Shown in pieces: positions 4,841-62,789 of a DNA stretch of 64,000 bases. The DNA is from a virus: IMG/VR virus record IMGVR_UViG_3300029922_000013, positions 86,859 to 150,858 of that record; one strand, given 5' to 3'. Position 1 is the first letter of the stretch; the number at the start of each line of letters is the position of its first letter. The notes below the pieces were generated by a model, which searched no databases, had not been told where the DNA came from, and saw only the letters and a program-made list of their open reading frames with translations. A program made the position numbers and the translations under genes.

Positions 4841-7800
4841 TTAGTTACCGATTCTGTAGATGCTTATGGTTGCGGCTACTGGAGCAATAGTAACTGAGCT
4901 ATTTTGGAAAAGAGAAACTGTATCCCCAGCATTTAGTTTTAAAATCGTACCGCCTTGAGCGTATCTATTCACTGCTTGCGTAGTTTCGGCTCTAGAACCA
5001 CCCAAGAGATTGGTAGTCGGTGTAGCTCCACCAGCATTAACTGAAGCGTATCCCTCATAATTTCCATTCACAGCAAAAGCAGTCGCACTAGAAATCAAAG
5101 TACCGTCTGCATGATAAGTGCCACTTTGTGGACAAGTCCAAACGCCAGTGCTCGTATTATACGAATTGGTGGTATCCTCGATCTTGTTCGTAAGGATAAT
5201 TATTCCCGCACTCACGGAAGAACTCGTCGTGTTATACTTCATGGCTACTGTATTGGACCCTGAAGAAGAACTTGAAGACGATCCTCCACCAGAAATGAGT
5301 TCAAACGTTACATAGTTATTCGTAGATGTATTATCTAGAGTAATCGTGTTGCCGGTGCCGTTAGTAACTGTAAGCCACAATAAATCTCCGGCCTGAGCGT
5401 AGAAGGTCGTAGACCCATTAGGGAAAGCTCCAACTGCTGACGTAGTTTGAGCAGAGAATTCCCCAAGTGTAGATGTCGTAGAAACAGACCCAGACTGATT
5501 GGCGGTGAGCTTTATTTGCTGAGACACGGTCATAGTCCCAGTGTTTTGAGTTGTGACAATACCGGTGACCTTCCAATAACCCGTGATCGGAACCGTATAT
5601 TTACCAGTACTAGTCGAATATCCTGCGTTCGTATCGTAAACAGAAGCAGAAAATATAACATTGGTTGTTGCAGTTGTGGCAATGGAAGTATTCGAAGTTG
5701 TGGCTTTTGCAGCTATAGCCCCACTTCCGGAACCTCCCCCACTGCTTCCGCCAGTACCTGCACCGTAGAATTCTTCCACGATGATGATACCTGCAGCTCC
5801 AGTACCCCCAACATATCCAGATCCAGCACCACCACTACCGTTAGTGCCACCTGAACCAATGGCCATCGTATATGTGGGCAATGGATTTGACACAATAGCG
5901 ACAGTCATACCACCGCCACCACCACCTGCTCCCGCCGCGAAGCCAGCCACGTTAGCGAGTGCACCGCTACCACCACCGCCGCTATTAGCGGTGGCATTTA
6001 AGCCGTGCCCAGTAACTGCACTAGAATTTAGTCCACCGCCAGCATAAAGTGGTGAACTACCACCTATACCTCCAGATAAAACGGGTACTGAACCTGATGT
6101 TATCACTTGTTTAGCGCCGCCAACTTGACCACTGAGATTTAAATAACCACCGGTTCCTGCACCGCCAGCTCCGCCATCGTTTGTTCCAGCAGCACTTCCG
6201 CCCGTAGCTGATAACGAAACAGTTCCGCCAGAAAACGTACTGGTACCGCCTCCAGAACCGCCCACCGTTGATGTTGTGCCTGATCCGCCACCGCCACCAC
6301 CACCGCCGACCACAGTAACCCTCAGGTAAGAAGGCGAAGGATTGGATGGGGCCGTATAGGTAGTCCCAGACGTAAGAACTTGAACTGTTGGAGCTTGTGA
6401 GGCAGATGCGGCAGCACTAGTTCCAGGACCAACGTAGAAATCGTCAAGATACAGAGCGAATCCGCCAGCGGGACCAGCTGTTGGATTATAAACTGCTATC
6501 TGAAAACTACCCATATTTGCTGGAGTTTGGAATGATCCCGTACAATAGCCTACACCAGAAATTTGAGTGAAATTGAATACTCCTACGGGAATGATCCAAG
6601 CATTATTTTGGAGATCGTAAATGGCTACCCCAAAAGTATTGCTAGAAGTTCCGGAAAAATTTGTGCCAGTGGAGGTCACGGCACTGTATGCAAAACTAAA
6701 CTGCAAAGTTTTGGATTGATCACAAATGTTTATAGCGACAGCCGGAGAAATGTACATATCCCCAGCATTGGTAGCTCCCGAGGCAGAAAAAGACATGGAA
6801 TATTGACCAGAAAGCTGGCCAGAACTTACAACTGCAGGGGCGTGAGTGTTGGCATTCGCACCAGATCCACCATTAGAAGCAGAAAAGGCAGCATTCCCCG
6901 TTCCCACAGAAGTGGGTAGATTTGTAGAACTAAGAGAGGAATGGGCCAAAGTCCATCCACTGACGTTGTCGTCTTCGAAAGTATTTCCGATAGCCAAATA
7001 GTTTCTACCCAAAACTGGTAAGTTCAACAACTGCCAGTTCCCAGCTTGATAATCGGCTTCAAAACTTACTGAGGAAGAAGTGAACGAAGAAGTTAGAGCG
7101 ATCCAAACATCTTTGTTATAGGTGACACAATTTCCGATAACGTACGGGAAACTTGCAGCCCAAGGATTTAATCCCCCGCTACTTCCTGAACCACCAGTCA
7201 GCAACCAGGCCCCATTTCCGCTATCAGCAGCAGTATCATACGTAAAGATGAAGGTACTGCCCACTGGCATTGTTACGTTTGCCCCGGTTCCAGTTAAAAT
7301 GTTGGTCGGACCAGTAGGAGAATGGTTATTTACGATGGTAGCAAGATTAGAACTTTGATTTGAAATAGTGATCGTTTGTCCATTGGTACCGGTAGGAATG
7401 CCGCTAAAAGTTGTTCCAGATGCAACAGTAGTCAAACGAACAAAGTTGTAGTTCTGGTCCCCAGAAGTTAGGGTCTGATTGGTTCCGCTATAGGAAGTAG
7501 CATCAGTAAAGGCATTGATAATAGTGGAAGCAAGAGCTACCCAAACGCCATTAGTGGTCGTGTTACTTTCCAGTTTTACTATGATAGATGCGCTAGGTTT
7601 TACGGTAAAAAGAGTGGTACCGCCATTATTGTTGATAGTCAAAATTCCAGTTGAAGTATTGTAGAATTCAAACTTTGCCCCACCTGGATTGCCGGAAGGG
7701 GCAGTTGGAAGAGAAAAGGTTGTAGCGTCTGGCAACTGAAATATTTGGGTTGTTGATCCCGTTAGAATCTCAATCTGCGGAGAAAAGTTAGTAAGGGTTG

Positions 7801-9065: not shown

Positions 9066-12000
9066 TTAATTATTCAGTATTGCTGTCCAAGACAAGACAT
9101 AATTTGCCGTATCCGTTGGCATATTCCATTTCAAAGTAAATCCAGTAGTAGCCTGAGCTGTTACGTCGATAGGTTGGAATTGCGGATTCGTATCCGTGGT
9201 ATTTAAGAAATTGGCAGTCACAGAATAGGCGGTACTAGCGTATGCCGTACTGAGCGTGATAGCCTTACTGGTTGCACCACTCGTCAAAGTCGTTTTACCA
9301 CTAAATATCCCTAACATCGTTAGAACTTGAGCAGCAGTTAGATCTGCAGCATTAGCCGTACTACCAGTATTGTTACCTTTGATAGTATCAGCCGGCATTT
9401 GAGCCAAGTTAGTATTGGTAATGACGTTGGTTCCAGATACACTTGCAGCAGTCCCAGACGTATTCGCCGCGTTATTCGGAATGTCCCCCGAAGCTAAAGC
9501 TCCCCATGCTGGAGCGGCAGATACCGATCCCGTTCCAGTTTGAGTTAGGAATTGTTTTGTGGCCGTGGTATTACCTGCAAGTCTGGCTGGTGCTGGAGTT
9601 GCATTTTCATATATAATATCACCCAATGTGGTCATTGGGTTAGTGAACGGAGTAGACCAAGTCATGGCCGTTGAACCGCCAGCCTGGGATGTTAGGACTT
9701 GGCCAGCACTACCAACGGTTGTTGGGAGATTGAAATTGTATGCGGAAGTTGCACCACCGTTTTGTACGGTGATGGATGCTCCACCTACTCCTGTAACAGC
9801 GAAACTAAGTTGACCTGTTTGGACAGCATTGATACCTAAAGTAGGAGTTGCTGTAAACGAAGGATCTGAACTAGTTCCTTGACCAGCAAGAAGTGTTCCA
9901 GCAGCAGCCGCAGCCAGTTGAGTAATGGCAGAGGTTCCAGCACCAATCAGGACACCGTGATTTGTCAGTGTCGTTTGGCCAGTACCGCCATGATTCACAG
10001 CGATGGTGGTAGCATTCCACGTACCAGTTGTGATAGTTCCAACGGACACCAGAGCCGAAGCCGTAGTTAGCCCACTAAGAGTGGTAAGGGTGGAATTAGT
10101 AGTCGCTACTAGTGAAGTTACCCCAGTATTCGAGATGGTCACGTCTCCAGTTACAGCAGTTGCTGTAGCAACATTTGATCCATTACCGAGCAAGATATCC
10201 GCACTTGGAAGAGATGCTAATTTGGAGAAAGCAATTGCTGCAGAGCCAGATACCTGAGTATTTGTAATTCCACCAGCCTTGACTTCTAGCTGATCACTGC
10301 CATTGATATCTATAGTAGAATTATCAACATTAACTGAAATTTTTGTACCACTTCCACCTGAAATAGCGCCGGTAGTGGAGAATGCAGTGGAAGCGATTTG
10401 TGTTTCAGTAATTCCCGCATTTTTAACGGAGAAAACTCCACTTACTAATTGAAGTGTTATTCCATCTGCCGAGTATGCTCCTGCTGAAGAAAACTGGACC
10501 CAAGTGATAGCAGTCGTGCCAAGTGTCCCGCCTGGTTGGGAAGTGCAGACAAAACCTAAATCGGCATTGACAGTACCTTCTTGTACAAATACAGCAGCCG
10601 CTGGGACTTCAGCCCAAGTATTCATATCTGAAGAACGTGCCCACGCTCCAGAAGCGGAAACGTATATCCCGTTATTTGCTGCTGTGGACTGATTTTTAAC
10701 TAAAACACGAGAAGAGCTTGTGGTGAACCCATCAATTGTTTGCTCACCGGACAGGGTAATGTTAGCCGTAGTAGCTACCAAAACTGCATTTTTCCAAGAA
10801 GTAGCGTTGATAAAATTGTCAACATAGCTTTTGTTGACCAAATCATTTGGATTAACAGGAGTGCTACTATTTGTAGGTGTAAATCCGCCAAGATTGATAG
10901 CGCCAGACATCGTTCCACCAGCAAGAGGTAGATATATAGCCGACAAGCTTGGAATGTCTGCGGAAACGAGAGACCTAAAGGTAGGCTGAGCTGCCGATCC
11001 AGTAGATGGCCCCGCAAACACAGTATTGGCAGTTTGAGTACTAAGGGTAAAAGTTAAAGTTCCGGAACTAGTTACCGGACTTCCAGAAATAGAATAAATG
11101 GGTGTTGAACTTCCGTCCGAGAGGGCGACAGAAGTAACGGTACCACTAGTGGCAGGACTTGCCCAAGATGGGATTCCGCCAGACACTGTAAGTATTTGTC
11201 CTGTGGAACCAATGCCCAACTTGGACAACACGTTGGTCGCGCTAGCGTACAAAGTGTCACCAGTTGTGTACGAACTTAGTCCGGTACCACCATGTGTTGG
11301 TCCTATTGCAGTTCCATTCCACACACCGGTCGTAATGGTTCCGATAGACGCAAGACTAGAAGCTGTGGTAAGAGCAGACAGACTAGTGAGAGTTCCGTTA
11401 GAAGTAGCCACTAAACTGGTAGCTAATGACCCAGCAGTAGTCGTTACGTCACCAGTTAATGTTGGGAATTGACCTGCTTGCAAAGTTCCAGATGCTTGTG
11501 TTGTAAGAGAAACTGTGCCAGAAAGTTGAGAAGTTGGCAGACTCAAAGAAGAAAGGGTGGTTAGCGTGGAATTGGAGGTAGCTGTGATATTAGCAGCATT
11601 CCCAGAAATATTTCCAGATACTTGCGATCCAGGCAAAGAAAGGCTTGAAAGAGTAGTAAGGGTACTGTTACTAGTAGCAGTGATATTGGCAGCTGTACCC
11701 GTTGTATTTTGATTTAACGTAGGAATATCAGCTACAACAATAGTTCTAAATGTAGGTGCTCCTGATGATCCATTAGGTGCAGCCAAAAACGTATTTGCGG
11801 CTTGATTTTGAAAACTAGAAAGAGTTAGGTTACCAGTGCTAGTAATCGGAGTATTTGTAACATTAAACAATCCAGTAGAATCAACTAACCCAACTGAAGT
11901 GACCCCAGTACTTGGAATCGAATAGTAACCTAACGTTCCCGAACCGTTCGTACCATAATATTTCGTATTACCTGGGGTTGCGGAATCGTTAACTAAAGTT

Positions 12001-12896
12001 ACCGTTCCACCAGTATTTACTAAAGAATCTGAGAAGACTAATGCCGAACCGCCTGCTTGCCAGGTAGGAAGGGCTCCGGGACCGTTTGAAGTGAGAACAT
12101 ATCCGCTAGTACCTAAACCTGAAACCTGCTGTAGGGCGCCTGTAGAAGTCAACCCACCTGCTAGTACCGCGTAAGGTGTAAAAGAAGTGTTTCCAGTACC
12201 GCCTTCAGAAACTGAAGCTGGATTTGGACCAGCGCCACTTGGGACGTTCCCAACACCCATCATTTGGCCATCGATCCAAATTTGAGTAGTGCTCATCACT
12301 ATACCAATTTTTAGATCGGATTCGTTAGTACCAGTTGGGGCAGTCGTACTAAAAGCTCCTGCGGAAGTCAGCCAAACTGGCTTGCCGATATCGCCTGTGG
12401 CAAAATCAGTATCACTGGAGCCTAGAGTGTAAGAACCGAATGAGTAAACCGTTATGCCTTGTCCAGCGGATACGCTGGTGGTAGAGAAAGCTATACCAAT
12501 CGCCCAAAACTCGTCTGCCGTAACAGTATTGTAATCGGCTTTGTAAACTTCATCTGTTGATTCTGAGAGAGAGTTCATTCCCCATCGAACAATGTAAGAA
12601 GTATCTGCCGTGAAAGATTCACCAGCAATAAAAGTATTTGATATTGCAGAAGAAGTGGCCACTGAAGACCAACTTAAGTTCCCAGAGCCATCGTTTTTAA
12701 GAAATGTCCCGGCTGTTCCCTGGGCATTTGGCCAGAACACAGCATAGCTGGTAGTAGTGGCGGAAGCAAATTGGGTAAGATTTCCAGAAGTAGCTCCGTC
12801 AACTTGTAATCCCAACACACTTAGGGTGTTGAGAGATAGATCTACAGTTCTAGGGGCACCGTTTTGGAGTTGTAGAAATTTCGAATAAACACTCAT
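9066..12896 (-). CDS. Long fibre protein (1276 aa)
   Basis: Repetitive T/S/G/A-rich sequence; GGTG, VTSV and APTFR fibre repeats; RVLVKNQSTAANNGIYV module common in phage fibres. Confidence 0.8.
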   Translation of the reverse strand: MSVYSKFLQLQNGAPRTVDLSLNTLSVLGLQVDGATSGNLTQFASATTTSYAVFWPNAQGTAGTFLKNDGSGNLSWSSVATSSAISNTFIAGESFTADTSYIVRWGMNSLSESTDEVYKADYNTVTADEFWAIGIAFSTTSVSAGQGITVYSFGSYTLGSSDTDFATGDIGKPVWLTSAGAFSTTAPTGTNESDLKIGIVMSTTQIWIDGQMMGVGNVPSGAGPNPASVSEGGTGNTSFTPYAVLAGGLTSTGALQQVSGLGTSGYVLTSNGPGALPTWQAGGSALVFSDSLVNTGGTVTLVNDSATPGNTKYYGTNGSGTLGYYSIPSTGVTSVGLVDSTGLFNVTNTPITSTGNLTLSSFQNQAANTFLAAPNGSSGAPTFRTIVVADIPTLNQNTTGTAANITATSNSTLTTLSSLSLPGSQVSGNISGNAANITATSNSTLTTLSSLSLPTSQLSGTVSLTTQASGTLQAGQFPTLTGDVTTTAGSLATSLVATSNGTLTSLSALTTASSLASIGTITTGVWNGTAIGPTHGGTGLSSYTTGDTLYASATNVLSKLGIGSTGQILTVSGGIPSWASPATSGTVTSVALSDGSSTPIYSISGSPVTSSGTLTFTLSTQTANTVFAGPSTGSAAQPTFRSLVSADIPSLSAIYLPLAGGTMSGAINLGGFTPTNSSTPVNPNDLVNKSYVDNFINATSWKNAVLVATTANITLSGEQTIDGFTTSSSRVLVKNQSTAANNGIYVSASGAWARSSDMNTWAEVPAAAVFVQEGTVNADLGFVCTSQPGGTLGTTAITWVQFSSAGAYSADGITLQLVSGVFSVKNAGITETQIASTAFSTTGAISGGSGTKISVNVDNSTIDINGSDQLEVKAGGITNTQVSGSAAIAFSKLASLPSADILLGNGSNVATATAVTGDVTISNTGVTSLVATTNSTLTTLSGLTTASALVSVGTITTGTWNATTIAVNHGGTGQTTLTNHGVLIGAGTSAITQLAAAAAGTLLAGQGTSSDPSFTATPTLGINAVQTGQLSFAVTGVGGASITVQNGGATSAYNFNLPTTVGSAGQVLTSQAGGSTAMTWSTPFTNPMTTLGDIIYENATPAPARLAGNTTATKQFLTQTGTGSVSAAPAWGALASGDIPNNAANTSGTAASVSGTNVITNTNLAQMPADTIKGNNTGSTANAADLTAAQVLTMLGIFSGKTTLTSGATSKAITLSTAYASTAYSVTANFLNTTDTNPQFQPIDVTAQATTGFTLKWNMPTDTANYVLSWTAILNN
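11535..11693 (-). repeat. Two copies of an identical 21-aa peptide with highly diverged codons
   Basis: AANITATSNSTLTTLSSLSLP encoded at 11631-11693 and 11535-11597. Confidence 0.85.
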
Positions 12897-20215: not shown

Positions 20216-20683
20216 ATGACCTATTTATCCATTATGGCAGCGGCAGCAAAGGCAGCTCATGTATCAACAACACTACTTTATGCAATTTGTGCACACGAAT
20301 CCAAAGATTTTTCATTAGATTTCGCAGAATACGACAATGGTAGCCCATCGTATGGGGTGTGCCAAGTTAAAGAAGACACAGCTAGATTTTTAGGTTTTAA
20401 AGGAAAATCTATGGAACTTAGAAATCCTATGATTGGAGCAAAGTACGCCGCTCTATATTTAAAATATCAACTAGATCGTTATAGCGGAAATGTATATAAA
20501 GCAGTTGCGGCCTATAACGCAGGTTCGTTTATTGAAAGCAAGAAACGTCCTGGTTTTGCTGCGAATCATAAATACATCAATCTCGTAAAACAAAAGCTTG
20601 ACAAACGTCTGCAACACGTACTAGATAGTAACAACACGAATTATTTTATTGACAAAATGGAGTTAAGCTATGAAAGTCGTTAA
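20216..20683 (+). CDS. Soluble lytic transglycosylase (SLT domain)
   Basis: Catalytic HES, SYGVCQV (GLMQ-like) and AAYNAG motifs. Confidence 0.85.
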   Translation: MTYLSIMAAAAKAAHVSTTLLYAICAHESKDFSLDFAEYDNGSPSYGVCQVKEDTARFLGFKGKSMELRNPMIGAKYAALYLKYQLDRYSGNVYKAVAAYNAGSFIESKKRPGFAANHKYINLVKQKLDKRLQHVLDSNNTNYFIDKMELSYESR

Positions 20684-34586: not shown

Positions 34587-36482
34587 TCAGCTCTCTGGGT
34601 CAGTGGGTTGAGGAAAGGGAAAGTTTTTAATTTGGCTAGGATCTATATCAATATTATTGCTTCTATCAAGAACATCCTGCGATTCAGATACCCCAGGCAG
34701 TATTTGGTCCAAATTGTTGTAGTCATTTTGTCTGTCTAAGTAGCCACTAGTATTAGTCATTTCAGAGTATTGTGTCACACTGCTAGGACTATCCAAGGCC
34801 ACTCCTTGGCTTAATTTCAAAGTAGTCTTGAATCTTTTTATACCGCTACTTGGGTCTATGTTACAAGAATGAATGATGCTTTCTATATGAAACACAACGC
34901 CTTCAAATTGTAAGTTATCCCCAATGCAGATTGGTTGGGACACGCCAAGCATTTCTATGGTGCCGTTCAATTTGAGCTGACCACCTATGGTGGCATCCCC
35001 CATAATTTTGGCCCACGACGGGCTAAGTGGGCCTGTTTGTACATAAGGATCGAACATGTTGCTTACTATTGACGGTCTTAGACCACTTCTGGTTACATCT
35101 TCGGAATCAAATGCGTAATTACCAGCACCCACTTCTTGGGCCGGTCCCGATCCCTGTTTGTCATTTATGGCAGCTCTGGAATAATACTGATAAAAATTGA
35201 TTCTAGCCACCTCGTCTCTTCCAATATCGTAACTATAAACCAAAGCAGAGTCCACTTTCCAGCGTGGGATCGTTAAAAATTGTGTCACAGGTATGGTAAC
35301 ATTTGTTCTAGCTTTAAAATCTTGAGTAGTGAACGGAATTTGTCTAAAAACTACAGTAGGGTAAATCTTATTATCTGTTCCTAATTTATAGCAAGTAAAA
35401 ATTTCATTAAGCGGTGCATTAGTATATTGATTGAGAATGGACCAAGCTTTTACGGAATTCCAATACTCTGGCATGAAAAATGACAGACCCTGCAGTTGGG
35501 TAGGAGTAAAATGAAAGCCAGGACCACTGAAATTAGAGTTGAATTTTGGATTCAAGCCTTGGGCCATTGTCTGGTTACTGCTTCCCGAATACCCCTGAAC
35601 TCCAAAATTGTAGTTGTAGATATCTTTTGCGGCTTTTGCGTTAGATATTCCCATTAGCTTGCCTACCAAAGCAGGTATTAAAAATTGCGTGTTGGCTGTA
35701 GGTAAAAAAGCTTTAAAATCATCACTGTAATTTGTGGTGTTTATTCCATTTCCGATAAAACTGGTGATCAGAAGGGCTACTATATCACGTAATTGAAAAT
35801 AACCTTTACTATTAGCCAACTGAGCCCAATCAGAAGATAGCTTTCTTATGAAGATACCAAAATTAGACTCTGACCCTGATGCCAGTAGATTTTGATTGAA
35901 ATAGATGGTATTATTAAATTCTGTAAAACCATAACCATCTATTTTATAGATGACTTGTTTAGTGCCCGATTGCTCGTTAATAGAAATATTTTTACTGACT
36001 CTTTGTATCTTGTAAAGACCCTTAAAACCATCATCTGGTCCATTTATTGGAGAACCATTTCTGGCATTTTGGGCTACTCTGCGGGCATCAGACTCCCAGT
36101 TTAGGATGTTTACGAATACAAAGTCACCTGGGGCTACAGCGGTCAGATAATTGACATCGGTTTCTTTGAATGTAGCTTCCATAGAAGGAGTCAAAGTGCC
36201 TTTATTCATACCTGTTGTTACAGCTATGCAATCACTTTCAATGACTAAAGGATCGTTTTGTTTAACTTCTAGAGCCGAATTGTTATTATTTCTAAAAGTG
36301 TCTCTATTCTCAAATCTAATGAAGGTTAGAACCCAAGTAGGACTGCTTTGGTTCACAAATGATTCAGGATCATTAGATGTAGAATCGTTTGAAAAATTAG
36401 GATTGATGGCCGAATCAACCACAGCTTGCTGGGAATTAGGCAGTAAGTCTACGGTGTATGCACTTACTCCATTCATTACCAT
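34587..36482 (-). CDS. Baseplate hub protein (gp27/gpD-like)
   Basis: Lies between tape measure and spike; C-terminal LNGTIEMLG...IGDNL...FHIESIIH...TTLKLSQG. Confidence 0.7.
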   Translation of the reverse strand: MVMNGVSAYTVDLLPNSQQAVVDSAINPNFSNDSTSNDPESFVNQSSPTWVLTFIRFENRDTFRNNNNSALEVKQNDPLVIESDCIAVTTGMNKGTLTPSMEATFKETDVNYLTAVAPGDFVFVNILNWESDARRVAQNARNGSPINGPDDGFKGLYKIQRVSKNISINEQSGTKQVIYKIDGYGFTEFNNTIYFNQNLLASGSESNFGIFIRKLSSDWAQLANSKGYFQLRDIVALLITSFIGNGINTTNYSDDFKAFLPTANTQFLIPALVGKLMGISNAKAAKDIYNYNFGVQGYSGSSNQTMAQGLNPKFNSNFSGPGFHFTPTQLQGLSFFMPEYWNSVKAWSILNQYTNAPLNEIFTCYKLGTDNKIYPTVVFRQIPFTTQDFKARTNVTIPVTQFLTIPRWKVDSALVYSYDIGRDEVARINFYQYYSRAAINDKQGSGPAQEVGAGNYAFDSEDVTRSGLRPSIVSNMFDPYVQTGPLSPSWAKIMGDATIGGQLKLNGTIEMLGVSQPICIGDNLQFEGVVFHIESIIHSCNIDPSSGIKRFKTTLKLSQGVALDSPSSVTQYSEMTNTSGYLDRQNDYNNLDQILPGVSESQDVLDRSNNIDIDPSQIKNFPFPQPTDPES

Positions 36483-38833
36483 TTACCACCAGATGGCCCA
36501 ATCATGGGTGAGCTTTTGCCAGCAGATGAAGAATTGGCTTGAGGCTGAGATTTGCCCAGTTTAGCTGCCATGGCATTGTAGTCTTCGGCTTTCATTTTTC
36601 CTTCTTTAACGGCTGCTGCGGCGGCGCCCAACGTAAGTATAGATACAGTAAGTTTGTCTACATCTGTGGCTGTTGGAACTAAATTTTTACCGAAAGATTC
36701 GAAATTTTGTATAAATTTTAATTGACCTGCCGCTATGGCAGCATTCTCTTGATCCGCCAATTTGGGCGTTTTAGGTTCTTCTGGAGCTAGTGGGCGAGGG
36801 AAGAAACCCTTACCTTTTGGAGTAAGAGATGCACCAGCCGCATTCATTTCCTGTGCTTTAGTTATTTCTGGAGCAGCGCCTGTACCGGTAGCCGTATACC
36901 ACAAACCTGTTTGTCTGGCAGCAGATTCTATTTCGGCAGGAATATCGGCTCCCAAACGTTTAGCCTCAGACATAGAGTTGTATCCGGCTTTTTCTAACCA
37001 GGATCTAACTGCCTTGGCATTCTCTTGTGTATGTCCCGTGATATCTGAACCGGCAGCAGTTGTGGAATCCTTCATTCCCATTATATCTTGTGCCGTGACT
37101 TGCTTGCCACCGCGCTTATTGAGCTGATACATGGCTTCCTGAACAACTGGATGCTGTTCTGTTAAATCTGCTGGTGATATCTTTTTCAACTGCTCAAATA
37201 GCATGGCCCCTTCGTCGCCCATGCCCGCTAGGCGTCTGCCTACAGGATTTCTCAACATCGCAGCTCTTTGCATTACGCTAAAAGGACCACCCTGCTGACT
37301 ACCGAGTTTTTGATAAGCCTCATAAGCAGTCTTTGCGGCTTCCATACCTGCAGACGTATTTTCTACAAATCCTCTGCCGAATTGCTCGCTAATGCGAGAA
37401 ACATCTCCTGGGGTTTTAGCACCACTTCTAGATACATATTCACTAGTAGTTTGCGTAAAATCTCTTAATAAGTCAACTAAGTCGCTATCATTCAGACCTA
37501 TCTTAAAAGCTTCTCCGATAATCTTGGCGGAAGCTTCTTTAGTCTCTTGTGCTCCACCCATAGTCTTACTAATATTGGCCAGCATCTGGGGAGCGTTAGT
37601 TAAATTATAATCTTTTTGCAACTGAAGCCCGTAACCCGATTCTCTGCCAACTCTAGCAGATCCACCAGCTCCCATTATAGCTTGCTGCATTTGAGTAACT
37701 TGCTCTTCAGTAAATTGAGTAGTTCCCCCATATGACATATTTCTTTGCAGGAAACCACTCTTACCCATAAAACCTTGATCAGAAAGGCCTAACCCTCTTT
37801 GAGCACCAAGATTTCTTTGATAATTATGAGCATTATACTCTGCAGCCGCTTTTTTAAGAGGGTCAGCATTCTCTTCGGCTTCTTGCGACCGTTTTACGAA
37901 CTCGGCTAAATCCTGAGAGGAAAGCTTTTCATAAGATTCCGTATCGCCGAGTGTCTTGGCTCTTTGTTTCGAATCGAGCAATTTCATGCCAATACCGCCA
38001 GCGGCTACTCCTAGGCCGCCTGCCACCAATCCTGCTGGAATCCCTACGCCAGTTGCACCTAAAAGTCCCGCAGCTCCCAAGCCGACTGCACCTGCCCCTA
38101 CCAAAGCATTTCCAGCCCACTGTTGGGCGGTGTCGAAAGTTCTTTGGCCTTGCCAAGCCTTCCTAGCATTAGCCATTGCTGCCGCTCTTTCAGGCATAAA
38201 AGCTAAGTGATAAGGATCAGCGGCGGCTTTTAATTGATCGCCAACAAGCGCATTGTTGGAACTCCCCATAGCAGAAGCCGCATCTAATGGAAGCCTACTT
38301 ATTCCAGCCACAGCAGCCCCAACACCAGTGATTATGGCAGCTATCGCGGCTCCCATTTTAGGTATATCTGCCGCAGAATTTCTAATTTTTTTATTGGATT
38401 CTTCATCCATACTAGCAATTCTTGTTGTAATAGCAGCAGCTTTAGCCATTGTCTCCGTTATTTGTTCTTGTATCTTCAGCTTTTTTTCATCGTTGCCCAA
38501 AGCCTGCTTCGCTTCGTAACTCATCTCCTTTTCTTTTTGGAGAATCTTGTTTTTTTCATTCAAAAGTTCAGTATACTTGCCCTTAGTTAAATTGAGATCT
38601 TTAACCAAATCATCTCTATATTTCTTCTGAGATTGTTCGTATTGCTGTTGAGAAGGGGCTCCAGGCATCGTACCTAGCCCATGCTGTTGCATTTTTTGCG
38701 ATATTTGCCTAAGTTGGGTCATTTGCTGAGGACCAGAATACATTTGATTCAGCTGTTCCTGCATTTTTTTGATAGTAGCATTGAACTGCTTATCGTCTAG
38801 ATCAAGTGATATTTTGAGTTTTTTCTCAGCCAT
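36476..38833 (-). CDS. Tape measure protein (785 aa)
   Basis: N-terminal LKISLDLDDKQF, helical A/G/Q-rich body with hydrophobic Gly/Ala segments; upstream of the hub. Confidence 0.75.
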   Translation of the reverse strand: MAEKKLKISLDLDDKQFNATIKKMQEQLNQMYSGPQQMTQLRQISQKMQQHGLGTMPGAPSQQQYEQSQKKYRDDLVKDLNLTKGKYTELLNEKNKILQKEKEMSYEAKQALGNDEKKLKIQEQITETMAKAAAITTRIASMDEESNKKIRNSAADIPKMGAAIAAIITGVGAAVAGISRLPLDAASAMGSSNNALVGDQLKAAADPYHLAFMPERAAAMANARKAWQGQRTFDTAQQWAGNALVGAGAVGLGAAGLLGATGVGIPAGLVAGGLGVAAGGIGMKLLDSKQRAKTLGDTESYEKLSSQDLAEFVKRSQEAEENADPLKKAAAEYNAHNYQRNLGAQRGLGLSDQGFMGKSGFLQRNMSYGGTTQFTEEQVTQMQQAIMGAGGSARVGRESGYGLQLQKDYNLTNAPQMLANISKTMGGAQETKEASAKIIGEAFKIGLNDSDLVDLLRDFTQTTSEYVSRSGAKTPGDVSRISEQFGRGFVENTSAGMEAAKTAYEAYQKLGSQQGGPFSVMQRAAMLRNPVGRRLAGMGDEGAMLFEQLKKISPADLTEQHPVVQEAMYQLNKRGGKQVTAQDIMGMKDSTTAAGSDITGHTQENAKAVRSWLEKAGYNSMSEAKRLGADIPAEIESAARQTGLWYTATGTGAAPEITKAQEMNAAGASLTPKGKGFFPRPLAPEEPKTPKLADQENAAIAAGQLKFIQNFESFGKNLVPTATDVDKLTVSILTLGAAAAAVKEGKMKAEDYNAMAAKLGKSQPQANSSSAGKSSPMIGPSGGKW

Positions 38834-38885
38834 TTCAAGACCTTACGTTTAGTAAACAATTAATAAAAATAGGAACATCCTAGGT

Positions 38886-38893
38886 TAAAGATT
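38886..38893 (-). promoter_or_regulatory. AATCTTTA putative late-promoter motif
   Basis: 52 nt upstream of the tape measure ATG. Confidence 0.6.
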
Positions 38894-38957
38894 CCGACTT
38901 TAACCCTAGATATCCCTATTATATCATTAAACTAAATAAGTCTATAAAATCACGTAT

Positions 38958-39131
38958 CTACAAACGAAACCAAATTCTAAGGGGGCCTCCCAGAGCTGCC
39001 ACAAATCCTATGTAAAGAAAATATAAAGGGGCGAATTCCTGCTGGAACGCGAGCGCAAAGATAAGATAAAAAAAGCCTAAAAAGCTCAATATATAGTATA
39101 ATGCTCCGAAATAGGCTCTTAAAAAATTCAT
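38958..39131 (-). CDS. Small two-TM membrane protein (57 aa, absent from the ORF track)
   Basis: MNFLRAYFGALYYILSFLGFFYLIFALAFQQEFAPLYFLYIGFVAALGGPLRIWFRL; ATGA-coupled, GAGG RBS. Confidence 0.6.
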   Translation of the reverse strand: MNFLRAYFGALYYILSFLGFFYLIFALAFQQEFAPLYFLYIGFVAALGGPLRIWFRL

Positions 39132-39313
39132 ACACCCTCTTTTAGTCTACTCTCAAGTTTCTTTAATTGACCCCTAAACAGTAAATCCAGAGGAGAGTCA
39201 TCGTTAGTAATATTTCTTTTCGTTAATTCTATCATGGCCATTATATGAAGAGTTTCATTGGAAGGTTTTGGAGTTAGTTTCTTTTTAGACTTTTTGATTT
39301 TCTTTTTAGTCAT
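39128..39313 (-). CDS. Small basic hypothetical protein
   Basis: AGGA RBS; in the operon. Confidence 0.5.
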   Translation of the reverse strand: MTKKKIKKSKKKLTPKPSNETLHIMAMIELTKRNITNDDSPLDLLFRGQLKKLESRLKEGV

Positions 39314-39316
39314 ATC

Positions 39317-39805
39317 CTACCATTTCATACTTAGTTGCAACGTTAAAAAGTCTCTACCCACATTTTGATCAAATATACCGGCACTTGATGTGTGACTGTA
39401 ATCCAACCCAATCCCATTTCCGTGCCTATCTCTAACACCAGCGTAAAAATCTGTACTGAATTGTGGAAATCTACCCCCAAGATAGCTGTCTGGGCTGGAG
39501 ATAATAGTCAACCCAGAACCACTCCTAAGTTCTACTGGATGGAGATCGACTTCCAATCCAATTCCTGATGACGCGTAAAGACTACTACTTCTAGTTGGAT
39601 CATTGCTTCCGTCTTTCCAGAAACCTATTTTGTTTTGCCAATAAAGTCCATCCCACAAAAAATTTCTTAGTCCAAGTTCTGCCACTTTAGTTTCGGCGAA
39701 GAAAGTTGAAGCGCTAGGACCCATTCCTACGCCATAACCAACGAATCCTTCGTCTGATTGGCATATAGTAGAAAACAATAGCAAAAGACATATAAATAAC
39801 TTCAT
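39317..39805 (-). CDS. pagL: PagL-like lipid A 3-O-deacylase (outer-membrane beta-barrel)
   Basis: Signal peptide; amphipathic beta-strands; HTSSAGIFDQNVGRD motif; terminal aromatic Trp. Confidence 0.75.
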   Translation of the reverse strand: MKLFICLLLLFSTICQSDEGFVGYGVGMGPSASTFFAETKVAELGLRNFLWDGLYWQNKIGFWKDGSNDPTRSSSLYASSGIGLEVDLHPVELRSGSGLTIISSPDSYLGGRFPQFSTDFYAGVRDRHGNGIGLDYSHTSSAGIFDQNVGRDFLTLQLSMKW

Positions 39806-39808
39806 TTA

Positions 39809-39955
39809 TTACCGACGATTATAGTTATAGTTTGGCAATTCTTCACATTCGTATAAATCGTTACCAATGGCCACGCAATTCTTTGCTTTGATCTTTGTCA
39901 CACTAGAACAAGCAACTACAAAAAGTAGTGCGATAAAAATAATAACATTTTTCAT
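39809..39955 (-). CDS. Small lipoprotein
   Basis: MKNVIIFIALLFVVAC lipobox; two further Cys. Confidence 0.65.
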   Translation of the reverse strand: MKNVIIFIALLFVVACSSVTKIKAKNCVAIGNDLYECEELPNYNYNRR

Positions 39956-40329
39956 ATTTTTTCCTTTTCTATAACACCGTCTAAAATCCACTGATTGAAA
40001 AGCTCTTTTTTAACTCTTCTAGGTTGAGATCGGTGCATCCATTGTCCCGATAATGTGTTGGTTACATATAAATCATTCGTTGCTTTACAAAAGACTTCTG
40101 CTTCACAAACATAGTACGTTACAGCGTCCAGTTGTATTCTGAGTCGATAACAATCATTACTGGGGACTGGAGTCAAAACAGATACTCCATTTCTATCTTT
40201 TAATGAATGGAGCACTTGTTCAAATCCTCTACCAATCACAAAATGAAGCGGATTTCCGTAATAGATTTCTCCCTTTTTAGGGGGTACAAGCAACAATTTG
40301 ATCTTATTTATCCACTTAAAAGACATCAA
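39952..40329 (-). CDS. Hypothetical protein
   Basis: Overlap-coupled ORF. Confidence 0.5.
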   Translation of the reverse strand: MMSFKWINKIKLLLVPPKKGEIYYGNPLHFVIGRGFEQVLHSLKDRNGVSVLTPVPSNDCYRLRIQLDAVTYYVCEAEVFCKATNDLYVTNTLSGQWMHRSQPRRVKKELFNQWILDGVIEKEKI

Positions 40330-40664
40330 ATCACCGTATTGGTGTAGGCATCCACAATAGATTGGCGAAGTTTGTTGAGTGAGCTAAGGTCACCAGCATC
40401 AAGCCCTTCGGTGAGCTTATTCAAAGCCCTGGCTACTGCATAGGTTGTAACAGAACCATTATCCTTATTCAGGATAAGACCACCTCCGCGCCCACGCCTC
40501 ACATTCACAAGTCCTGCAAGACGCAGTTTACGTGTGATCTGTTGAAGAAAATGAAAGGAAACGTTTAGCTTCCTAGAAATCTCTACAACTGTCACTGGAT
40601 TTTCCTTGTCCTTAAGATAACTTACTGTTTCTACTGCAATTTCCAAATCTCGTCCCAATTTCAT
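40326..40664 (-). CDS. Rrf2-family winged-helix transcription regulator
   Basis: EISRKLNVSFHFLQQITRKLRLAGLVNVRRGRGGG signature; AGGAG RBS. Confidence 0.85.
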   Translation of the reverse strand: MKLGRDLEIAVETVSYLKDKENPVTVVEISRKLNVSFHFLQQITRKLRLAGLVNVRRGRGGGLILNKDNGSVTTYAVARALNKLTEGLDAGDLSSLNKLRQSIVDAYTNTVI

Positions 40665-40699
40665 ACTATTCTCCTTTGTTTAATTACCTATCTCACACT

Positions 40700-41107
40700 C
40701 TACTTGGTCTTTTTCAAGATGTCAAGGGATTTCTTTACATCTGATTCGGTTAGTCCAATAAAAGAATTCGTTTGAACTAGATGATCTAGCACTTTATCCA
40801 TATCTGCCTTGTTGTCTAGGATAACGAAAGCTTCTGGCTTATGGTCCTTGATCCATCTTTCGATGTGATGCCCTCTGTTGTTTCTTTTTGCTCCATCTGT
40901 GGTGTCAACGACTCGTTCTGAATCTACACCCTGTTTTTCCAACATCCCTTTGCAGAATTTCAAACCTCTATGGCGCCAACTAGAGGAAACGACGATCTTA
41001 AGATCAGGTTCCTTCTTAAGAAGCCTATTTAGATTCTTTATAGCAGATGGAGAAAACTTGTCTCCGATTCGTAGGACACCGTCAAAATCACAGAAGCATA
41101 TTTTCAT
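40700..41107 (-). CDS. HAD-family phosphatase (Swiss-Army-knife RNA-repair-like HAD)
   Basis: FCDFDGVL, IVVSSSWR, RG..I..W, FVILD, GLT motifs. Confidence 0.8.
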   Translation of the reverse strand: MKICFCDFDGVLRIGDKFSPSAIKNLNRLLKKEPDLKIVVSSSWRHRGLKFCKGMLEKQGVDSERVVDTTDGAKRNNRGHHIERWIKDHKPEAFVILDNKADMDKVLDHLVQTNSFIGLTESDVKKSLDILKKTK

Positions 41108-41367
41108 ATCGCATCTCCAGGGTAAGTGTCGGGTTTTCCCAAAACCTCAGTGTATTTGTAAAATTGTACCATTCTAGCTATGGTGTTCAAGGTCTCTGGA
41201 GACCATCCATCCACTTCACCGATCCAAAAAGCAACCACTATAATTGGAGTGTGAATGGCCGTGGCTATAATAGAAGCTGCTTCTGCAGGTTTTCCGTTCC
41301 CTTTTTCCAAATACCACTTTTGAACGAAAGCTCTTCCTACCTTATAATCATCGATATTAACTTTCAT
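41104..41367 (-). CDS. Hypothetical protein
   Basis: ATGA-coupled on both sides. Confidence 0.5.
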   Translation of the reverse strand: MKVNIDDYKVGRAFVQKWYLEKGNGKPAEAASIIATAIHTPIIVVAFWIGEVDGWSPETLNTIARMVQFYKYTEVLGKPDTYPGDAI

Positions 41368-57170: not shown

Positions 57171-57434
57171 TCAATTCCCCTTCTTAGTCGTTGGCGTAGT
57201 GGTAACACCTGTTTTAAGTTGTTCTACGATACCTAAAGTTGACATATGAAATCCAATCTCATGGATGCTGAAGCAATTATCGCATGCCAAACACACGGCA
57301 TCATTCCCAGCATAGTAATCCCTTGGGCCTTGTTCCTCATACACTTCTCTGGTGCCACACATAGGACAATAATACTCTGTCTTTTCCCATACTTCTTCGT
57401 AATGATGCGTTGAATATTCTCTAATGACTTTCAT
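57171..57434 (-). CDS. Zinc-ribbon protein
   Basis: CPMCG...CLAC. Confidence 0.6.
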   Translation of the reverse strand: MKVIREYSTHHYEEVWEKTEYYCPMCGTREVYEEQGPRDYYAGNDAVCLACDNCFSIHEIGFHMSTLGIVEQLKTGVTTTPTTKKGN

Positions 57435-57811
57435 CCTATTTCCTTTCCAAGTTTAGCCAGAACTTTCAGGGTGATCTTATGTCCGTCACAGTAACCCCAT
57501 TCTTTGCCGTCCCAAGTGCAAGCACATCCCATCTCAAATTCTGCACAAACAAGGGCTGGGTCATTCCAAATCTTAAGGGCGCTCTCCGCTTCTTTTAAAA
57601 GCCCTCTCAGCTGATCTCTATCCCACAAAGCGTTTTTGAGAGCAGCATCGTATTGTTCTGCAATAAATTTACCTGCATTTTCGAGATCTTGGCACTTGGC
57701 CTTTAGCTCAGCATTCTCATCTGCCAACGTTTTAGGGTGGTAGTATTCGTCCAGTGATTGGGCGCAAATCGAACAAACACCCACGATATCTTTGTTATGG
57801 AAGCAACTCAT
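57431..57811 (-). CDS. Coiled-coil / Cys-rich hypothetical protein
   Basis: Coupled ORF. Confidence 0.5.
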   Translation of the reverse strand: MSCFHNKDIVGVCSICAQSLDEYYHPKTLADENAELKAKCQDLENAGKFIAEQYDAALKNALWDRDQLRGLLKEAESALKIWNDPALVCAEFEMGCACTWDGKEWGYCDGHKITLKVLAKLGKEIG

Positions 57812-60559: not shown

Positions 60560-60804
60560 CCCAAGAAGACCTAAAGTTTCTAGAAGAAGTGATCTCCAAG
60601 GCATCTCCTAAATTTGGACCTTACACGTCTAATTACCCTTTCTATGCGGACGTTACCAAACCTGCTCCTAGCATGTCCAAGCACGACCACGAAAGACCTA
60701 CGTACTGGCGTATAGAAGACGCTGTGTTTATAGCTGTCGCCCGTGAGTTCCTACCGAAATTGGTAGAAGAAGTTAAAAGGCTTCAAAAGGTAGAGAATGC
60801 CTAG
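60556..60804 (+). CDS. Ead/Ea22-like phage protein
   Basis: DAVFIAVAREFLPKLVEEVKRL. Confidence 0.55.
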   Translation: MTQEDLKFLEEVISKASPKFGPYTSNYPFYADVTKPAPSMSKHDHERPTYWRIEDAVFIAVAREFLPKLVEEVKRLQKVENA

Positions 60805-61094
60805 ACTCGTGTATACTCAAGAAGACTTGGGTAAGATGGACCATGAAGTATATGAACACTTAATGTTCGCCATCAATACTCGTTTTTGGCATATGCTAGG
60901 GATTGACTGGAAAACGTATATAGAGTACTACCAAGACCCGGTAACCAAAGAAATGGTGATTGAATGGGAATGAAAGTACATAAACACTTGACTTCTGGAA
61001 TAACTCATTGTATGCTGGGCTTAGGAACAAAGCCAATTTGGATTACTCTTCATTGGACCAACGTAACGTGTAAGAAGTGTCTTGGGAGGAAGAA

Positions 61095-61337
61095 ATGAAT
61101 AAACTAATTTTGTTTATTATTTTAGTGTCTATGCCGGTTCTTGCCGAAGAACGATACTACCACTACATGGACTGTGTTAAGGTTGTGAGTGGATTTTTTG
61201 AAGGATGTAAAGGCAAAACGGTAAGTTGGCGCTATGTGGGTGAAGTTACCTACAGTGTAGAGTTGCAGTGCAAAGGACATTCCACAATTGAAAGTTTTAT
61301 AAGTTTGGATCTTAGGCCAGCTAAAGGATGTTTATAA
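61095..61337 (+). CDS. Secreted small beta protein
   Basis: MNKLILFIILVSMPVLA signal peptide; GGAGG RBS. Confidence 0.55.
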   Translation: MNKLILFIILVSMPVLAEERYYHYMDCVKVVSGFFEGCKGKTVSWRYVGEVTYSVELQCKGHSTIESFISLDLRPAKGCL

Positions 61338-61489
61338 TATATGAAAACACTAGTAATTGCGACACAAGGTATTTTGTTAGGCGTAGGTATTCAGGGTCTA
61401 TTCGAGTCAAATCCTCGCTTATGGCTAGCTATTATAATTCTAAATCCAGTGCTGACATGCGTATATTCGCTGTTGGATAGGAAATAGAT

Positions 61490-61702
61490 ATGGCCAAAAC
61501 AACAACCGCAAAAGAACTTCTTGACTTTTTAGAACAAGTAGTACATGATGGTTATGGTGAAGCGGAAGTCCTGCTCGATACTGAAGCTAGAACTTTTGAT
61601 TATCATATGGCTAAAGTAGGTAGAGCTTACGTAAATAACGAAACCGATCCAGAGTATCCATTCGTAAGTTTACATGAACAAAGAAACATTAAAGGAGAAT
61701 AA
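61490..61702 (+). CDS. Hypothetical protein
   Basis: AGGA RBS. Confidence 0.5.
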   Translation: MAKTTTAKELLDFLEQVVHDGYGEAEVLLDTEARTFDYHMAKVGRAYVNNETDPEYPFVSLHEQRNIKGE

Positions 61703-61703
61703 A

Positions 61704-61949
61704 ATGGCACGCAGATACAACTTTCCAAATCGTAAAGAAGCCCGTAAAGCATCAGCACAAACTAGACAAGAAGCCTCAGATAAGCTCACTACAGAACAAA
61801 AGCTGGCTAAAGCTACTCCTGGTTCTAGGGAGTACAATAGGCTTCTAACCAAGGTAGGGACGGTGCCTAAGCCTAACAAGAAGTCTAAGAATAAGGCTTT
61901 AGACGCACTTGCAGTAGAAACCGAAAATCTAGGTGTGGAGTTTAAGTAA
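61704..61949 (+). CDS. Small basic protein
   Basis: AAGGAG RBS; K/R-rich. Confidence 0.6.
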   Translation: MARRYNFPNRKEARKASAQTRQEASDKLTTEQKLAKATPGSREYNRLLTKVGTVPKPNKKSKNKALDALAVETENLGVEFK

Positions 61950-61950
61950 T

Positions 61951-62262
61951 ATGATCACTAACAATACACAAATGACAACTACCCCAGCTAAGCTCAGTCC
62001 GGAAAATTTTTGCTATTGGCTTCAAGGCCTATTTGAGCTGACAGATACGGTAGCATTAACCGAAAAACAAGTAAAACAAATCAAAGACCATCTTGGATAT
62101 GTATTTAACACAGTCCATGTTCCAACCACTGTAACTATTGCAACACCTCCAGCTTCTCCCTACCTTCCTGGTTATGGTGGGCCTACATCTGGTACCACTA
62201 CTATCTCTTGTGGAAATATTCTCGATAGTGGTACATTACCTTTCATCTCTACAGTTTGTTAA
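61951..62262 (+). CDS. Hypothetical protein
   Basis: FCYWLQGLFEL...IKDHL motif; low-complexity tail. Confidence 0.55.
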   Translation: MITNNTQMTTTPAKLSPENFCYWLQGLFELTDTVALTEKQVKQIKDHLGYVFNTVHVPTTVTIATPPASPYLPGYGGPTSGTTTISCGNILDSGTLPFISTVC

Positions 62263-62274
62263 AAAGGAGTAAAT

Positions 62275-62496
62275 ATGTCAGAACGTGCAAAGAAAGTATT
62301 CGAAAGTCGTGGGTTAGATGGTCAGGAAGAGCACATGGCTCGCATTAAAGCTGCTGCGGAAGTACTTTGGGACGAACTAGATAACATTTCTGTTTATCCT
62401 GGTAATTCTGAAGGGATGCGTTTGATTAGTTTGGCCAAGACTTCTTTGGAGCAGACTGTCATGTGGGGCGTTAAATCGCTATCGAGGAATCACTAA
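62275..62496 (+). CDS. Acb2/Tad1-like helical hairpin protein (candidate nucleotide-signal sponge)
   Basis: RLISLAKTSLEQTVMWGVKSL helix; 73 aa; AAGGAG RBS. Confidence 0.6.
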   Translation: MSERAKKVFESRGLDGQEEHMARIKAAAEVLWDELDNISVYPGNSEGMRLISLAKTSLEQTVMWGVKSLSRNH

Positions 62497-62789
62497 TGAA
62501 AGACTACGAGAACGAGCTAAGTATTGTAAGGGAAGCTCTCGCAAAAAGTATGGAGAGTTTTATAGGTGAAAAGCTTACGTCAGCAGCATTAGTAGATATA
62601 GAACACGTTATCCTAATGCAGCTTCACGACCTAATTAGTAGGGGGATCGTCTCCAATCCTAAATTGCCAGTAGTTAGGGTTAAGTCTAACAATGTGGACA
62701 GAAGCGTATCCGTAAAATTCTTCGATTCAGATACAAACGAAGAAATATCACTACAAGATTTGCTTTTAGAGGAGAAGATAGGAACATGA
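62496..62789 (+). CDS. Hypothetical protein
   Basis: Coupled ORF. Confidence 0.5.
   Translation: MKDYENELSIVREALAKSMESFIGEKLTSAALVDIEHVILMQLHDLISRGIVSNPKLPVVRVKSNNVDRSVSVKFFDSDTNEEISLQDLLLEEKIGT

Follow-up and report, generated by a model that had tools for sequence, protein, structure and literature searches.

The DNA analysed here, referred to as the window, is a stretch of 64,000 nucleotides covering bases 86859-150858 of the 150,858-bp IMG/VR virus record IMGVR_UViG_3300029922_000013, a genome that is ~91% complete and has a GC content of 40.9%. On its minus strand lies a gene for a predicted outer-membrane esterase of the PagL family, the subject of this analysis. The open reading frame (ORF) starts with ATG and comprises 162 codons, with the stop codon included in positions 39317-39805. 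The gene and its two main elements are as follows, in window coordinates:

39317..39805, minus strand: PagL-family gene encoding a protein of 162 residues (P0001), a predicted outer-membrane eight-stranded barrel esterase (from the ORF, Pfam, the structural model and the fold match)
39755..39805, minus strand: signal peptide, residues 1-17, with predicted cleavage ahead of D18-E19 (from the translation and a model helix at residues 2-15)
39350..39394, minus strand: active-site stretch H138-T-S140 ... N148-V-G150-R151-D152, spanning the end of strand 7, a loop and the start of strand 8

P0001 matches the Pfam PagL profile (PF09411) with 36.6 bits against a gathering cut-off of 23 (E = 5.7e-9, profile positions 27-135 of 136), and the match at genome level scores 36.5 bits. 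NCBIfam and PHROGs gave no match for the protein. A word-indexed search of 5.8 billion proteins retrieved 16 homologues of 37-66% identity, every one of which carries PF09411. One of them had already been automatically annotated as "Lipid A 3-O-deacylase (PagL)", and the ESM Atlas clusters nearest to the phage protein are PagL and "lipid A 3-O-deacylase". Searching the PDB sequences with the single phage sequence gave no match; the PagL of Pseudomonas aeruginosa (PDB 2ERV) was reached by profile only, being the one match of the 17-sequence profile among solved structures (E = 6e-7). Together with the invariant residues described below, the Pfam and profile E values place the resemblance to PagL beyond chance. 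Judged from its sequence, the ORF is a bona fide member of the PagL family, belonging to a divergent and apparently phage-restricted clade.

In the alignment of the 17 sequences, H138, S140, N148, G150, R151 and D152 do not vary even at 37% identity, while most surface positions do. The profile alignment pairs H138, S140 and N148 with His126, Ser128 and Asn136 of 2ERV; the first two of these are the catalytic residues and the third forms the oxyanion hole, as reported by Rutten et al. 2006. The third member of the triad in P. aeruginosa PagL is Glu140. In the phage protein the motif is spaced as His 0, Ser +2, Asn +10 and Asp +14, and D152 thus sits at the spacing of Glu140 in ungapped continuation of the alignment. 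As the HMMER alignment ends at Gly138/G150, two residues short, the triad acid is assigned as Asp by register and not by alignment. Of 171 clade sequences, 159 have the motif H-x-S-x7-N-x3-[D/N/E], with Asp at the last position in 131, Asn in 27 and Glu in 1. One chromosomal PagL of a metagenome-assembled genome (MAG) has Thr at the triad-acid spacing, so the acid may not define the family. In Salmonella, the His and Ser of PagL (His163/Ser165) are essential (PMC4958258).

An AlphaFold2 model computed from the 17-sequence alignment, with a predicted local distance difference test score (pLDDT) of 87.8 and a predicted TM-score (pTM) of 0.79, consists of the signal helix and eight β-strands (residues 19-28, 39-51, 54-65, 75-87, 91-102, 115-125, 130-140 and 150-161). 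In the model, H138 and S140 close strand 7, and D152 opens strand 8 of the same hairpin, a placement that fits an adjacent His, Ser and Asp. Structural similarity search using Foldseek against PDB chains ranked 2ERV first (E = 4.4e-6, TM-score 0.65/0.71). The top match in VIA-align is again 2ERV, with a Z-score of 18.3 and a root-mean-square deviation (RMSD) of 2.2 Å over 133 residues at 20% identity, followed by an entry with a Z-score of 16.4 and an RMSD of 3.1 Å. The barrels of OprF, OmpA, NspA and OmpW reach Z-scores of 14-16 (RMSD 3.1-3.9 Å, 5-10% identity), and a de novo designed barrel (6x9z) reaches 15.7 (RMSD 2.0 Å over 114 residues, 13% identity). The fold alone cannot single out PagL, because generic eight-stranded barrels score Z 15-16; the assignment stands on the predicted fold, the hidden Markov model (HMM) match and the motif combined.

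The N-terminus has a Lys at position 2, a hydrophobic run and the small residues C-Q-S preceding D-E, and the aligned homologues show A-D/E or A-Q/E at the predicted cleavage point. The C-terminus reads ...L-T-L-Q-L-S-M-K-W, with every second position hydrophobic and Trp as the last residue. The C-terminal strand and its terminal Trp are as in an outer-membrane β-signal; this signal and the cleavage site were judged by inspection of the translation and the model. A preliminary description of this DNA, made from the letters alone, had already called the gene a phage-encoded PagL-type enzyme, and the HMM, fold, motif and phage context all support it. The Pfam PagL match lies above the gathering score, and the predicted structure is an eight-stranded barrel with PagL (2ERV) as the closest solved structure. 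The signal peptide it described is found at residues 1-17, of the Sec type by translation and helical at 2-15 in the model, and both the alternating β-strand pattern and the terminal Trp are present, the model having eight strands. The 15-residue motif that it quoted is the translation of 39350-39394 on the minus strand, letter for letter. Its statement that the triad has the same spacing as in Pseudomonas PagL holds for His, Ser and Asn, which align with 2ERV, but the acid is Asp rather than Glu.

The PagL gene belongs to a compact set of six genes, running from the Rrf2 gene (40664) to the gene of a protein with two transmembrane segments (2-TM; 38958), in which neighbouring genes are spaced by -4 to +3 nt. 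The set and its surroundings comprise:

40697..40725, minus strand: promoter-like site TTGACA-17-TAGAGT; the Rrf2 start follows 33 nt downstream
40326..40664, minus strand: gene 1 of the unit, Rrf2-type winged-helix regulator (Pfam Rrf2, 63.2 bits)
39952..40329, minus strand: gene 2 of the unit, 125-residue protein of no significant family, without an N-terminal membrane segment
39809..39955, minus strand: predicted lipoprotein of 48 residues with a lipobox ...V-V-A-C and three Cys (from the ORF translation)
39128..39313, minus strand: Lys-rich soluble protein of 61 residues, starting 3 nt past the PagL stop; no Pfam or PHROG family
38958..39131, minus strand: 2-TM protein of 57 residues with two hydrophobic segments and the motif A-L-G-G-P-L; 4-nt overlap with the Lys-rich gene
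38868..38920, minus strand: hairpin resembling a terminator and leading into a U-rich tract; it separates the 2-TM and putative tape-measure genes
36476..38833, minus strand: putative tape-measure protein of 785 residues with Gly/Ala-rich hydrophobic blocks, outside the unit; baseplate genes follow

The ATG of the lipoprotein gene overlaps the upstream stop codon, and the gene ends 3 nt ahead of PagL. A counterpart of the lipoprotein (38% identity) lies 1 kb from PagL in the related phage contig L001, and an Rrf2-type gene is found near PagL in the relatives L001 and L027. The Lys-rich protein has weak positional homologues of 23-30% identity in related phages. Pfam and PHROGs hold no family for the small proteins of the unit, the 2-TM protein included. 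A PHROG match of the lipoprotein to Cor (E = 0.031) spans the signal peptide only and was discarded. The tape-measure assignment of the 785-residue protein, for which no family match was found, follows from its composition and position.

The hairpin at 38868..38920 has a stem of ~22 bp and a folding energy of -27.8 kcal/mol (z = -5.2), and none of 200 shuffles was as stable. A second terminator-like site, inside the Rrf2 gene, was no stronger than shuffles and was rejected. A generic promoter scan of the 2.6-kb PagL-unit region gave nothing above shuffles. The pattern TTGAC-N17/18-TAnnnT occurs at 39 sites in the whole genome compared to 14 ± 3.3 expected, and 23 of the 39 lie at most 120 nt upstream of a co-oriented ORF, including those of the helicase, SbcC-like, ribonucleotide reductase (RNR) and SLT genes. 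In relatives, the same promoter type directly precedes the PagL cassette, and in three of four cases the start codon lies 6-7 nt past the -10 box; start codons this close to the -10 box suggest leaderless transcripts. From these motifs we infer that the PagL unit is a separate transcript driven by the host polymerase, of an early or middle class. The promoter class of the unit favours expression in the early or middle phase over an exclusively late role in lysis. The enriched motif often reads TTGACTTTT; sites in the window include 2280, 20169, 40725, 46586, 49268, 52347 and 59451. A start codon only 7-9 nt past the -10 box is found at genome positions 41537, 45813, 60756, 70128 and 89138.

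The neighbourhood of the PagL gene is conserved in related phages. Genes for PagL proteins of 47-59% identity lie directly beside a homologue of the putative tape-measure gene in the metagenome contigs L001, L026, L027 and L005 (at its phage end), and the same holds for seven IMG/VR contigs of 21-177 kb. The linkage therefore counts at least 11 related phage contigs (4 metagenome and 7 IMG/VR), or 12 with the window. The flanking tape-measure-like proteins are 29-37% identical to the 785-residue protein. With the window counted, a 2-TM protein of ~60 residues with an A-[LI]-[AG]-x-P motif stands next to PagL in 10 of the 12 contigs, and a Lys-rich protein of 53-82 residues accompanies it in 8. 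Most relatives have the order Lys-rich, 2-TM and PagL, with stop codons overlapping start codons and the genes directed away from the tape-measure gene; the other arrangement, in which PagL leads and every gene is directed towards the tape-measure gene, is that of the window and three contigs. As gene orders vary between relatives and L001 encodes a serine recombinase (Resolvase; 11687-12250) at a distance of 1.2 kb from PagL, local rearrangement may be recombinase-driven. No Resolvase match was found in the virus genome of the window.

In seven contigs, PagL is followed by a Cys-rich protein of 106-193 residues with a CECG motif, which is missing next to PagL in the window. It is encoded at 10497-10853 in L001, 8757-9101 in L026, 8495-8860 in L027 and 6252-6578 in L005. 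The smaller copies begin with Y-P-D-G-T, all copies share C-E-C-G ... H-S-x-W-C, which looks like a zinc-binding motif, and no family match was found. A weak match to this protein lies elsewhere in the virus genome of the window, at 57425-57586.

When the family profile was run with HMMER against 1.84 billion cluster representatives, 510 matched at E ≤ 1e-3, of which 320 reached E ≤ 1e-10 and 68 reached E ≤ 1e-30; scores of the top 150 clade matches are 93-219 bits. Four distant members of 29-37% identity (on L028, L030, L031 and L032) all lie on phage-like DNA. In L030 and L032, the PagL gene immediately follows a family-A DNA polymerase gene in a replication module with Rad52, PDDEXK, DnaB and primase genes, and its neighbours in L028 and L031 are small ORFs together with genes for endonuclease VII, HNH and pyrimidine-dimer excision proteins. 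A fifth distant-member contig is too short to judge its context. In 400 Pseudomonadota genomes the clade profile reached at most 41.6 bits, a phage fragment in G001 excepted. From 15 informative contexts and one sampled phylum (Pseudomonadota), the clade apparently occurs only on phage-like DNA; the nearest ESM Atlas clusters, labelled "Bacteria" from few members, are weak evidence against such a distribution. No match was found by tblastn of P0001, P0060, P0090 and P0015 against 50,697 cultured-phage records, and single-protein scans of viral contigs with P0001, P0060, P0015 and P0132 gave no relatives.

The PagL unit stands in a phage genome. Near it are baseplate genes and genes for an RNA ligase, a polynucleotide kinase, a nucleotidyltransferase, RNR, an enzyme of the inosine monophosphate dehydrogenase (IMPDH)/GMP-reductase type, an RNA-repair HAD phosphatase and the Rrf2 regulator. 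Terminase, portal, GroEL, helicase and SbcC-like genes are found elsewhere in the virus genome. The nearest cultured phage is Myxococcus phage Mx1 (OR576727.2), whose portal and terminase are 42% and 29% identical. Its genome is of similar size (170 kb), but PagL is absent from Mx1, in which the PagL profile found no match. The claim of the preliminary description that the enzyme is phage-encoded is borne out by the surrounding portal, terminase, baseplate, putative tape-measure, RNA-repair and RNR genes. Its view of the gene as unusual cargo fits the absence from the 50,697 cultured-phage records but not the frequent occurrence in uncultivated phages. The phage had also been called lytic, which is not established, because a gene with a tyrosine-recombinase (Phage_integrase) domain scoring 72 bits lies in the genome at 10804-11274 (outside the window, L043), its open frame being just 193 residues long. 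This gene could encode a short integrase or an Xer-like resolvase. The diderm host that had been proposed is implied by the Sec signal, the barrel β-signal and the adjacent lipoprotein.

The virus sequence was found in peat metagenomes, and identical pieces of window 38900-41200 occur at low depth in four further peat runs, whose contigs hold no variant letters in this region. The phage is thus a recurrent member of the peat community.

Assignment of the host through the MAG contig L008 (G001:C2) was tried and rejected, since a 16-kb, 38% GC phage piece there abuts 65-70% GC DNA within 200 nt. The stretch concerned is L008 1-20000, with the joint near 16000, and belongs to a 397-kb contig from a MAG labelled "beta proteobacterium"; the phage piece is the sole bacterial-genome match to this PagL. 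It carries tape-measure, PagL, RNR and HNH genes, and the reading frame that opens the high-GC side is GcrA-like. Neither a tRNA gene nor an evident integrase-like ORF was found at the joint; the contig is probably a chimeric assembly, unusable for host assignment.

Compared to the bacterial enzymes of P. aeruginosa (2ERV), Salmonella and Bordetella, the phage protein has in common the family HMM, the barrel, the His-x-Ser pair with Asn at +10 and an acid at +14, the signal peptide and the C-terminal aromatic residue. It differs in its ~20% identity, in having Asp for Glu, in its own G-R-D motif and in being part of a phage operon instead of a chromosomal gene. Gtr and Oac, O-antigen glucosyl- and acetyltransferases, modify the sugars of lipopolysaccharide (LPS) for superinfection exclusion, usually in lysogens. 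They too alter the host LPS that other phages meet, but their targets are O-antigen sugars, reached from the inner membrane or periplasm, whereas the phage PagL would act on the lipid anchor within the outer membrane. The pagL genes of Salmonella and P. aeruginosa are reported to be under PhoPQ control (PMC9804370). Phage-borne lipid A editing has a precedent in LpxR, an outer-membrane lipid A 3'-O-deacylase that rides on prophage DNA, beside the antiterminator Q in lambdoid prophages of enterohaemorrhagic and enteropathogenic Escherichia coli (PMC13192938, PMC6863877). However, LpxR (PF09982) is unrelated, 12-stranded, Ca2+-dependent and 319 residues long, takes off the 3'-acyloxyacyl group, and is a moron of temperate phages that has been studied for immune evasion by the lysogen. 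The LpxR HMM has no match in the phage protein, for which PagL is the sole Pfam match even at E up to 10. Our literature search for a phage-encoded PagL found no paper, the prophage LpxR being the nearest precedent. The contribution of this locus lies in the Mx1-like lineage, the small genes conserved as partners and the defined transcription unit.

On the observed family, fold, catalytic residues, phage context, linkage and operon we base a proposal for export, substrate, timing and purpose. By analogy with the bacterial enzymes, it is likely that the gene encodes a working PagL-family enzyme, made early or in the middle of infection, that remodels host lipid A for exclusion of other phages and/or vesicle shedding. 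PagL would be made from the six-gene unit of Rrf2 regulator, 125-residue protein, lipoprotein, PagL, Lys-rich protein and 2-TM protein, driven by a host-type promoter of the class found at replication and nucleotide-metabolism genes. The host Sec system would export the protein and the signal peptide would be removed, whereupon the host β-barrel assembly machinery (BAM) would fold it into the outer membrane as an eight-stranded barrel. His138, which ends up on the rim facing the outer leaflet where strand 7 closes, would activate Ser140, with Asp152 on the adjacent strand 8 in the position of Glu140 of P. aeruginosa PagL and Asn148 helping to form the oxyanion hole. Its substrate would be the lipid A of the same membrane, from which it would cleave a primary acyl chain held by an ester bond, by analogy the 3-O chain removed by characterised PagLs. 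Remodelling of the envelope would begin in early or middle infection, as the promoter class points to, and the altered packing of the outer membrane would most likely serve to make later phages enter less well and/or to have more vesicles shed.

Such a benefit to the phage is made plausible by published effects on vesicles and on phage entry. Active PagL, but not the His/Ser double mutant, raises vesicle release ~4-fold in Salmonella without envelope stress (PMC4958258). In P. aeruginosa, loss of a secondary lipid A acyl chain leads to more genome entry by phage PP7, so that the acylation state of lipid A controls a step of entry after adsorption (PMC10783630). Among the possible purposes we rank early or middle envelope remodelling first, opening of the outer membrane at lysis second and a changed substrate third.

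Several observations weigh against the proposed lipid A remodelling by a PagL-type enzyme. Other eight-stranded barrels reach Z 15-16, and identity to the solved PagL is only ~20%. The triad acid is Asp and not Glu, the HMMER alignment stops two residues before it, and 27 of the 159 clade members with the motif have Asn at this position. The promoter sites are consensus matches only, and no RNA runs containing the PagL stretch were found. In addition, the candidate endolysin gene shares the promoter type, so that the timing would also be compatible with a role in lysis.

Such a role, which we regard as improbable, is the best-surviving alternative. The enzyme would be a late disruptor that thins or destabilises the LPS leaflet after holin and endolysin have acted, replacing or assisting spanins, and the 2-TM (holin-like), Lys-rich and lipoprotein genes would belong to the same device. 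In 10 of the 12 contigs PagL is linked to a 2-TM protein whose tail is short and charged, which speaks for this reading, as do the adjoining lipoprotein gene, the lack of a recognised spanin pair, and the position of the sole endolysin candidate, an SLT domain at 20216-20683, without an adjacent holin or spanin. However, the promoter type is that of the replication and nucleotide-metabolism genes, and the terminator closes the unit before the structural genes. No family match marks the small proteins as holins, and the protein upstream of the lipoprotein lacks a membrane anchor, so there is no i-spanin/o-spanin pair. The need for Sec, chaperones and BAM would be slow for an end-point trigger, and overexpressed Salmonella PagL leads to vesiculation without envelope stress, lysis not being reported (PMC4958258).

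The lipoprotein gene at 39809-39955 was itself tried as half of a two-component spanin and rejected, since the preceding 125-residue protein has no membrane segment and no spanin family match was found. The SLT-domain protein is a lytic transglycosylase of 155 residues encoded on the plus strand; tail genes surround it, and the promoter ahead of it is of the class found at the PagL unit.

It is slightly less probable still that the same fold and chemistry serve another substrate, such as a different position of lipid A, a phospholipid, ornithine- or sphingolipid-type lipids, or an acylated polysaccharide of an unusual host. The clade lies far from bacterial PagLs, its profile scoring at most 41.6 bits on the sampled Pseudomonadota against at least 93 for clade members, and its G-R-D motif, with Arg151, is invariant and peculiar to it. 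Myxococcus is the host of the nearest cultured relative. Against this, the position of the active site on the barrel rim is retained, and to our knowledge every characterised PF09411 member is a lipid A 3-O-deacylase (Geurtsen 2005 and Rutten 2006, as cited in PMC4958258).

Least probable by far is a non-catalytic barrel, either a receptor-masking surface protein or one like Lom, Ail, OmpX or OmpA, whose PagL likeness would reflect ancestry only: phage-encoded eight-stranded barrels are common in the viral structure library and generic barrels score nearly as high as PagL (Z 15-16), but none of the viral ones matches better than PagL, and His, Ser, Asn and Gly-Arg-Asp are conserved throughout the 17 sequences while the surface varies. 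The Lom, Ail, OmpX, OmpA-like and "opacity" phage barrels in BFVD (Foldseek E = 4e-6 to 1e-3) are likewise small outer-membrane barrels made by phages. They are at most 16% identical, have no reported His-x-Ser...Asn motif, do not belong to the PagL family and are adhesin- or porin-like rather than enzymes.

If large and possibly virulent phages do make a lipid A-remodelling enzyme of this type, in a clade whose hundreds of sequence clusters were met on phage-like DNA alone, editing of the outer-membrane lipid anchor would be routine among phages. This would bear on the exclusion of other phages, on vesicle shedding and on the opening of the last barrier at lysis. It would also offer a set of small, self-inserting outer-membrane esterases. 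More tentatively, PagL, the small inner-membrane 2-TM protein, the Lys-rich peptide and the lipoprotein might form one envelope module acting on the lipid anchor of LPS, for superinfection exclusion at the level of lipid A or as a new outer-membrane disruptor. Such a module would come from a large PagL clade confined to phages and spread across several unrelated lineages, and editing of lipid A would then be a general phage strategy not yet described.

Apart from the PagL unit, the virus genome encodes a GroEL-type chaperonin at 60781-62547 (L023 3784-5547; PHROG 5725, E = 1e-78) and one tRNA-Ile with the anticodon TAT at 7581-7657. A gene for a homing/HNH endonuclease of 521 residues (L022 10805-12367) directly precedes the terminase gene.

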